IMG/VR virus record: IMGVR_UViG_2667527895_000005
From: a virus
Lineage: Duplodnaviria; Heunggongvirae; Uroviricota; Caudoviricetes
Reading direction: 5' to 3' (one strand)
Length of the DNA stretch: 6,041 nucleotides
In this document: one piece after another, positions 4,344-4,973 of the stretch
How positions within the stretch are numbered: the stretch's first letter is position 1
Layout of the letters: the number at the start of each line of letters is the position of its first letter
Position numbers and translations under genes: made by a program
The notes under the pieces: generated by a model
Database searches by the model: none
The model's input: the letters and a program-made list of their open reading frames with translations, nothing else
Told to the model about the DNA's origin: nothing

Positions 4344-4973
4344 ATGAAGCATGAAGAAATGAATCAGCGATTCAATCACCTGGAAAATGAAATCACTGAG
4401 CTTAATAAAAAATTGTCGGCGTTGGTGAGTTCTGAAGATGAAAACAAACGCCGCGATGAGCATTATGCGGCGATTTACGATTACTGCCACAAAGTCGCTC
4501 ACGAGACTTTTATGAAGTTTTTGCAGGAAAAGTTTTTACCGGCCGCATTGTCAGAAAAAGAGGCGGCTTACCTGCGGCCTGAGTACGTCATTACGGTTAA
4601 CAGTGCCGGAGAGGAAGAGCATAAAAGTGATTTTATTGCGTCTGCACCGGATAAAGACCAGGAACCCCATCGGCCTTTCAGGGTTTCCTGTGAAGAGGGT
4701 GAGTTCGTCGTTTATGAGAACGGAAAACCTGTCCGGGCATCGCATCATCACTGCCTGAAAATTATTAATCTCGCTATCAGATGCCTGAAAGACGAAAACA
4801 CCAGAGTTATGAAACGCATTGGCCGTTGCATGGGGTATTTGCAGGTGGCGGCAGAGATTGAAGCACTTGCCAGTGGTGCAGACATGGATGCTGCGGTGCG
4901 GGAGGCTCTTCTTCGTGATTTCAATACTCCCCCTTTAAGAAAGAGCCTGATGACTGGATCCAGCCGGGGCTGA
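4344..4973 (+). CDS. Hypothetical 209-aa cytoplasmic protein inserted between pinholin and endolysin (moron; function unknown)
   Basis: Seen: clean ORF starting 3 nt after the holin stop, GGAG at 4332-4335 (8 nt upstream). No TM segment or signal peptide. Charged N-terminal region (about residues 5-40) that looks helical, and a C-terminal region with clustered Cys/His (C116, HHHC 135-138, C148, C163). No family recognised from memory. Confidence 0.7.
   Translation: MKHEEMNQRFNHLENEITELNKKLSALVSSEDENKRRDEHYAAIYDYCHKVAHETFMKFLQEKFLPAALSEKEAAYLRPEYVITVNSAGEEEHKSDFIASAPDKDQEPHRPFRVSCEEGEFVVYENGKPVRASHHHCLKIINLAIRCLKDENTRVMKRIGRCMGYLQVAAEIEALASGADMDAAVREALLRDFNTPPLRKSLMTGSSRG

Follow-up and report, generated by a model that had tools for sequence, protein, structure and literature searches.

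We analysed a 6,041-nucleotide (nt) stretch of tailed-phage DNA (Caudoviricetes; IMG/VR record IMGVR_UViG_2667527895_000005), hereafter the window, centred on an open reading frame (ORF) for a 209-amino-acid protein that lies between the holin gene (S) and the endolysin gene (R). An original prediction, made from the sequence alone, had presented this ORF as an uncharacterised and unfamiliar insertion into a phage 21-type lysis cassette. By its sequence, the gene is very probably one allele of a modular YdfR-family gene that occupies the S–R slot: it retains a helical hairpin (module B), a linker (module C) and a C-terminal domain (module D), lacks the DUF1327 head (module A), and is frameshifted in its conserved tail. 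The ORF is a real gene, probably expressed late, and belongs to an E. coli/Shigella lambdoid prophage. Its family is already catalogued as phrog_1085, whose function is listed as unknown, so that “uncharacterised” stands; the window gene is nevertheless a variant allele of that family and not a new kind of lysis-cassette insertion.

The window protein matches the phrog_1085 profile with an E-value of 1.2e-73 (249 bits), residues 1–209 aligning with profile positions 117–288 of 296. No model in Pfam, NCBIfam or PADLOC matched it, and PF07041 (DUF1327) was absent even at E ≤ 1. Scans of 113 and 17 relatives against the same three collections returned nothing consistent except DUF1327 in fused relatives. 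Among the 120 homologue clusters listed, a large minority have an N-terminal PF07041 domain; these proteins are 242–333 aa long and are named “YdfR family protein” by NCBI. The phrog_1085 match begins only at profile position 117 because these fused homologues carry DUF1327 in front. Since the defining domain was tested for and is absent, the window protein is not a PF07041 member; it is a homologue of the C-terminal part of the long YdfR-family proteins.

One of the fused alleles, the 333-aa P0004, sits in the same slot, 4 nt after the holin gene and 42 nt before R. It is 82% identical to the window protein, and the two genes share 95% DNA identity from codon 17 on. In a blastn comparison with locus L097, homology covers window positions 4105–4347 and 4393–5100 with nothing in between, and the short stretch left in the window replaces the whole DUF1327-encoding module of the long alleles (Table 1). 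Where the slot gene reaches 95% identity, at a long-allele locus, the holin is 87% identical. Among isolated phages, mEp460 and PhiR47_1 have the nearest S and R genes (92–95% identity), which flank a 104-aa YdfR consisting of DUF1327 only, and homology between these phages and the window ends at 4347 and restarts at 5023.

Alignment of the variants divides slot genes into A (DUF1327), B (the helical hairpin, ~60 aa), C (a variable linker) and D (~100 aa plus tail, with the motifs xH(R/H)xxII and LGR[CSA]MG[LY]LQxAAEIE), and an alternative C-terminal module, D′, also occurs. The architectures observed are A, A+B, A+B+C+D, A+C+D, B+C+D and B+D′. Module B follows DUF1327 in 169-aa alleles and, in 161-aa alleles, precedes a different C-terminal module, while indels in the alignment shorten or remove module C in 185-aa alleles. 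Because some alleles pair the hairpin with a different C-terminal module, B would serve as an adaptor shared by two or more C-terminal domains. In the Stx2a phage Stx2_14744 (L006:2501-2986) and in proteins P0118 and P0153, module B is joined to an unrelated C-terminal module ending in ...GILCSIPVSIEIDTNTITGELVTAGVGIFRHEGNDAKGSFTKIGPFFLKVER.

Table 1 Coordinates of the lysis cassette, the slot gene and its modules in the window, with examples of the companion gene in related loci
Feature	Position	Strand	Evidence or remark
Holin, S21-type class II (pinholin), 71 aa	4125..4340	+	PF04971, E 5.5e-35
Shine-Dalgarno sequence GGGGAG	4330..4335	+	8 nt before ATG 4344, within the last codons of the holin gene
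Slot-gene ORF, 209 aa, phrog_1085 member (very probably B+C+D with frameshifted tail)	4344..4973	+	
Module B, N-terminal helical hairpin, aa 1-64	4344..4535	+	AlphaFold2 helices; partial matches to phrog_2091 and phrog_15975; alignment
45 nt (codons 2-16) replacing the 393-nt DUF1327-encoding module of long alleles	4348..4392	+	blastn against L097
Module C, variable acidic low-confidence linker, aa 65-110	4536..4673	+	pLDDT <50; dN/dS 0.7-1.0
Module D, conserved C-terminal domain, aa 111-195	4674..4928	+	pLDDT 73-84; kept in Salmonella relatives
Frameshift site, run CCCCC where intact alleles read CC(A/G/C)CCC, 1 nt lost	4929..4933	+	
Out-of-frame remnant of the conserved tail, FKKEPDDWIQPGLTYLKRRI + TAA (4994-4996)	4934..4996	+	-1 frame, uninterrupted
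Right-hand boundary of the swap slot, just upstream of R	5023..5038	+	Homology with YdfR-only cassettes resumes (blastn against L095, L096)
Lysozyme R, Gly/Ala-rich SAR-like N-terminus	5039..5572	+	PF00959, E 5.4e-24; hydropathy peak at residue 9
Rz (i-spanin)	5569..5973	+	PF03245, E 2.2e-23
Rz1 (o-spanin lipoprotein), embedded in Rz	5789..5983	+	PF06085, E 4.1e-21
phrog_1853 examples	L002:4777-5091, L004:2993-3307, L090:4808-5125	-	

These comparisons overturn the view that the gene is unrelated to YdfR: it corresponds to the coil, linker and C-terminal domain of long “YdfR family” proteins that lie in the same slot, after an S21-type holin and before R, such as P0004 and gp05 of the Stx2-converting phage 86 (YP_794052, 268 aa). 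The long proteins have in addition an N-terminal DUF1327 (~100–130 aa) and an intact W..PG..YLKxRI tail, and the window copy has neither. The short YdfR proteins of the Qin prophage and of mEp460 and PhiR47_1 (PF07041) occupy the same slot with the same boundaries in the closest S/R cassettes. Short YdfR consists of module A alone, against B+C+D in the window, and the two have no common sequence; they are linked through the fused long forms. The RNase E-binding region of YdfR (residues 1–72) is missing from the window protein. A pairing idea, in which the window protein and the 104-aa YdfR would have an N-terminal helix in common, was ruled out, short YdfR being module A only.

The slot itself proved to be routinely filled by YdfR-family alleles in E. 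coli prophages. In the syntenic cassettes of the kind that the original prediction had proposed comparing, the slot has the same boundaries and holds alternative alleles, YdfR-only ones included. Its premise that S is normally followed directly by R fails for E. coli on the same evidence and on genome counts, which were made at megablast sensitivity in 5,426 complete E. coli genomes. The 315-nt YdfR (DUF1327) gene was matched in 4,248 of these, the S21-type holin of the window in 1,376, the 3′ part of the slot gene with its spacer (4800–5045) in 195, and the window allele (≥99% identity) in 7. On these counts a filled S–R slot is the rule, domain D a minority extension and the window allele rare. 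The cassette as such can do without domain D, since close relatives have none, and the slot gene appears to be accessory and not part of the core lysis machinery. The original prediction had named a family routinely annotated in lysis cassettes with an assigned role as something that would refute it; such a family was found, but one to which no role has been assigned.

The slot gene has many relatives and bears the marks of selection. A collection of 5.8 billion proteins yielded 132 homologues at E ≤ 1e-3, and 42 distinct stand-alone alleles were recovered among the fetched loci. The ratio of nonsynonymous to synonymous substitution rates (dN/dS, by Nei–Gojobori, window allele against divergent alleles) was 0.25–0.40 overall, 0.14–0.31 in domain D (residues 111–196) and 0.25–0.5 in the N-terminal helices of module B, with higher values in the linker (Table 1); these substitution patterns indicate that the family is under purifying selection. 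Its placement is regular too: apart from L016 (22 nt) and L039, which is disrupted internally, nearly all of the E. coli-type loci examined have the start codon 3–4 nt behind the holin stop. The distance to R is either 36–42 nt or, where there is extra DNA, usually one reverse-strand gene, 424–1,225 nt (most often ~452).

In the window, the holin stop codon (TAA, 4338–4340) leaves a 3-nt gap to the ATG of the slot gene, whose own stop codon (TGA, 4971–4973) precedes the endolysin ATG by 65 nt. The original prediction had described this arrangement correctly, including the gene's own Shine-Dalgarno sequence, and its naming of the neighbours as an S21-type holin, a signal-arrest-release (SAR) endolysin and Rz/Rz1 is confirmed by four Pfam families (Table 1). 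The same holin is annotated “class II holin family protein” in a 99%-identical prophage, L001. A consensus scan found no promoter-like or terminator-like site on the + strand that would separate the slot gene from S or R. Late co-transcription with the lysis genes, as first proposed, is therefore the natural reading, presumably from the Q-dependent promoter, and translation is probably in step with that of the holin, given the gene's own Shine-Dalgarno sequence and the 3-nt gap. The endolysin ATG, unlike that of the slot gene, has no recognisable Shine-Dalgarno sequence in 5010–5038 (TGATAAATATCC ATG). Rfam returned no RNA-element match in 3906–6041, and the GC content of the slot gene is slightly lower than that of its neighbours (0.475 vs 0.51). 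The protein lacks a transmembrane segment, its maximum 19-residue Kyte–Doolittle hydropathy (KD19) being 0.76 against 1.75 for the holin, and the predicted location is cytoplasmic, in agreement with the earlier suggestion.

The 3′ end of the window allele is damaged. Intact alleles end in ...[DN]xPPFKKxPxxWxxPGxxYLKxR[IL], whereas the window protein ends in ...NTPPLRKSLMTGSSRG. Compared with ACT CCA CCC TTT AAG AAA in intact alleles, the window allele, ACTCCCCCTTTAAG, is one base short. The deletion swaps the conserved tail for 12 unrelated residues, and the family motif W..PG..YLKxR[IL] is lost from the protein; the stop at 4973 is allele-specific, and with one C added the ORF encodes 217 aa and lies at the usual distance of 42 nt from R. 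The frameshift hits the last ~20 codons and leaves 197 of 217 in frame (~94% of the protein), with no other lesion in the allele. Degradation, which the original prediction had named as something that would count against it, is thus slight and confined to this 3′ frameshift. Tail loss is nevertheless likely to matter, because the W, P, G and Y of the motif are at least 90% conserved, Salmonella relatives included, and the window allele, without head and tail, is probably weakened or inactive. A read error is excluded, as the frameshifted allele recurs identically in six complete genomes, in twelve IMG/VR contigs and in reference genomes of S. flexneri and E. coli; the clusters to which it belongs comprise 181 and 101 sequences.

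A long allele has independently lost 1 nt at the same spot (L080 compared with L004), and P0042 and P0074 have further tail frameshifts. More generally, the final ~25 codons of family members are a recurrent site of independent 1-nt frameshifts, which fall in short homopolymer runs near CCC TTT AAG AAA and each abolish the conserved tail. This recurrence reflects either a mutational hot spot or tolerated loss. The deletion in the window yields C_CCT_TTA (4931–4937), which fits the X_XXY_YYZ pattern of a −1 slippery heptamer, and a shift there would restore the tail. We rejected programmed −1 frameshifting: there is no stimulatory structure, the RNA downstream of the heptamer being no more stable than shuffled sequences (z 0.40), intact alleles need no shift, and L080 gives G_CCT_TTA. 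The frameshift is treated here as a plain mutation. One homologue, L003:3001-3607 (NZ_CP076709), is annotated “frameshifted” in RefSeq although its 209-aa ORF is open throughout and keeps the tail; the annotation was probably made against a longer reference protein.

A first AlphaFold2 (AF2) model of the window protein was poor, with a predicted local distance difference test score (pLDDT) of 50. A second (m1bab06aadc9a), built with 113 diverse sequences, reached a pLDDT of 73–84 for residues 111–195. In this model domain D has three short strands (residues 113–117, 120–125 and 128–130) and helices at 134–149, 155–177 and 183–193; the N-terminal hairpin (helices 3–27 and 31–64) is of moderate confidence, and residues 65–109 of the linker are low. 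The model supports the helical N-terminal region and separate C-terminal domain that had been described from the sequence. Single-sequence and profile searches of solved structures (PDB) gave nothing below E 0.005 for the protein, and domain D had no Pfam, NCBIfam, PADLOC, PDB or fold match.

The original prediction had also pointed to a Cys/His-rich C-terminal region that could bind a metal. The residues are there (5 Cys and 10 His in the protein), but they do not make a conserved metal site. C48, H134, H136 and C162 are kept within E. coli, whereas C116, H135, C137 and C147 vary even there; in Salmonella relatives C162 is Ser or Ala in several, and the segment around C48 cannot be aligned. 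H136 alone is retained broadly across the family, no set of three or four ligands is conserved, and we rejected the metal site on these grounds. The conserved core consists of the Gly/Ala-rich helix LGR[CSA]MG[LY]LQxAAEIE, the DNPPFK turn and the aromatic tail, which look like packing or interaction surfaces and not like a catalytic set.

The family is restricted to prophages of Escherichia, Shigella and Salmonella. When 1.84 billion cluster representatives were searched exhaustively with a profile, only 41 clusters were returned, the divergent ones being Salmonella enterica prophage hypotheticals, and a scan of species-representative genomes found the family only in Escherichia and Shigella. 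One long match, P0145 (1074 aa), was discarded as a repeat-protein artefact. The Salmonella proteins (for example P0186, 261 aa, and P0216, 245 aa) have the same domain D, clearly conserved, and the same tail motifs, with ~25–45% identity over the aligned proteins. They are likewise encoded in the late region beside SAR-endolysin cassettes, some with a convergent phrog_1853 gene. They differ in a degenerate DUF1327-like head, mostly below Pfam thresholds, in extra Cys pairs elsewhere, and in gene order (Q-HicAB-X-holin-R): the gene lies between Q/HicAB and a holin of PF04971 or PF16080, and a lysozyme with a SAR-like N-terminus follows in each arrangement. Because the position differs in Salmonella, the constant feature of the family is the Q-dependent late region beside a SAR-endolysin cassette and not the S–R junction. 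The HicA/HicB pair between Q and the domain-D gene of Salmonella prophages occurs in either orientation (L090:3137-3770, L093:2830-3467).

Domain D has a companion. A gene of phrog_1853 (~104 aa, unknown function) lies convergently just downstream of it in 26 of the 94 domain-D loci, separated by 12–66 nt, mostly ~16 nt (tblastn matches). The companion proteins of Salmonella and of Stx2 phage 86 are 48% identical. Within a collection of 50,697 phage records, phrog_1853 was present in four, each of which belongs to the five records with domain D. The gene is thus a specific but optional partner of domain D and may be a functional one. The window is without phrog_1853 and has only the 42-nt-type spacer.

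For the function of the gene, we favour a reading that begins with what has been reported of DUF1327. Residues 1–72 of YdfR bind the catalytic half of RNase E, RNase E(1–597), in two-hybrid and pull-down assays, and RNA co-purifies with YdfR (PMC13232886, 2026). Since DUF1327 and B-C-D are frequently fused, they may act in one pathway. Domain D would then be a protein-interaction module, neither enzyme nor metal site, working in the pathway of its frequent fusion partner. The DUF1327 part of full-length alleles would dock on RNase E, and B, C and D would contribute oligomerisation and a second binding surface, which would affect late RNA handling or the run-up to lysis. That domain D is such a second surface, on a late protein in contact with RNase E or RNA, is a tentative proposal; taken together, the identity of the gene and this mechanism make an explanation that we regard as somewhat favoured overall. 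The fullest form of the idea is more speculative still: in enterobacterial prophages with pinholin/SAR-endolysin cassettes, DUF1327 and domain D would form a two-headed late protein, one head docking on RNase E and the other, sometimes with phrog_1853, controlling the fate of late transcripts or the approach to lysis. If so, the headless form in the window would be a natural separation-of-function allele.

Several points weigh against this proposal. Overproduction of YdfR altered few transcripts (PMC13232886), and the window protein is without DUF1327, so the RNase E lead does not apply to it directly. Domain D shows no structural or sequence likeness to any RNA-related or lysis-related protein, and its structure model is of moderate confidence only. 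The spread of the frameshifted allele (181 + 101 cluster sequences; six complete genomes) could mean that the tail is dispensable. Expression data for the slot gene were not found. Apart from the RNase E interaction paper, the literature yielded nothing about what DUF1327 does, and neither phrog_1085 nor the accessions of the window protein turned up in it; DUF1327 is mentioned otherwise in one genomics paper only.

The main rival, which we consider possible though doubtful, is a lysis-timing regulator: a cytoplasmic protein that binds the cytoplasmic ends of the holin, or the SAR endolysin before its export, and so delays or sharpens triggering. Known antiholins and lysis regulators (S21-71, P1 LydB, T4 RI) resemble the slot gene in being encoded inside or beside the holin gene and in their late co-expression. 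The slot gene's tight abutment on the holin gene, its lack of a promoter of its own and the family's association with pinholin-type holins and SAR-like endolysins, in E. coli as in both Salmonella arrangements, all suit such a role. Those regulators, however, are membrane or periplasmic proteins or holin isoforms, whereas the window protein is predicted to be soluble and is not homologous to them; it lacks a transmembrane segment and any antiholin similarity, and it is a separate ORF not derived from the holin frame. A dedicated holin partner would also sit uneasily with alleles that are shuffled relative to those of the holin (87% identity for the holin against 95% for the slot gene), with the YdfR-only allele beside the closest holins, and with the absence of domain D from most genomes that match the window's holin. 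In Salmonella the gene lies upstream of the holin, next to two unrelated holin families.

It is unlikely that the window copy is a functionless, decaying remnant of a long YdfR-family gene, its head deleted and its tail frameshifted. Loss of the best-conserved tail motif through the 1-nt deletion, absence of the DUF1327 module, and the similar frameshifts in L080, P0042 and P0074, together with the homologue annotated “frameshifted”, fit decay. Yet headless B+C+D genes form a well-populated, selected sub-family of 185–222 aa with intact tails and many alleles, and the window copy, 95% identical to an intact allele, has most of its protein in frame and a single lesion; a remnant is possible for the window allele and not for the family. 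Less probable again is a moron for defence, superinfection exclusion or anti-defence; a defence or anti-defence moron was among the roles that the original prediction had listed. The Q-to-lysis region of lambdoid prophages is a known accessory-cargo site, which in related loci holds stx, HicAB, ParDE and a Tad2-like gene, and the optional convergent partner phrog_1853 travels with domain D, although it is absent from the window. PADLOC, on the other hand, assigned the window protein to no family and gave one marginal match (E 0.018) in one of 17 relatives. The gene is tightly joined to the holin gene with no promoter-like or terminator-like site of its own, its GC content is barely below that of its neighbours, and late expression suits neither defence of a lysogen nor early anti-defence.

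The holin–endolysin slot of S21-type cassettes is thus filled in most E. coli genomes, Shiga-toxin phages included, by an unexplained family. New here are its modular map (DUF1327, hairpin, linker and D), the conservation of domain D into Salmonella, and the optional partner gene. Natural alleles carry the modules alone or combined and so make up a ready-made dissection set; together with the reported interaction of DUF1327 with RNase E (PMC13232886), they make it testable whether lambdoid phages use the slot to adjust host RNA decay or lysis timing. For the window itself the message is smaller, a catalogued hypothetical whose copy is probably impaired.

A lambdoid prophage of E. coli CFSAN029787 matches the window at 99.3–99.9% identity, and the parts of the window that match E. 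coli and Shigella flexneri genomes do so at 96–100%. Upstream of the cassette the window holds a Q gene (2866–3282) and, between Q and the holin, a 407-nt run of N (3499–3905). The counterpart interval in L001, ~40 nt shorter, contains four tRNA genes (Ile, Arg, Thr and Gly), and on that basis the N run would be a phage tRNA cluster in the late leader. Downstream, between the lysis cassette and the terminase genes, L001 has a ParD/ParE toxin-antitoxin pair and a KilA-N gene (L001:7834-8368 and 8567-9064). In L097, a prophage with a long fused allele, a Tad2-like gene (PF11195, anti-Thoeris family) directly follows Rz (L097:4592-5113).

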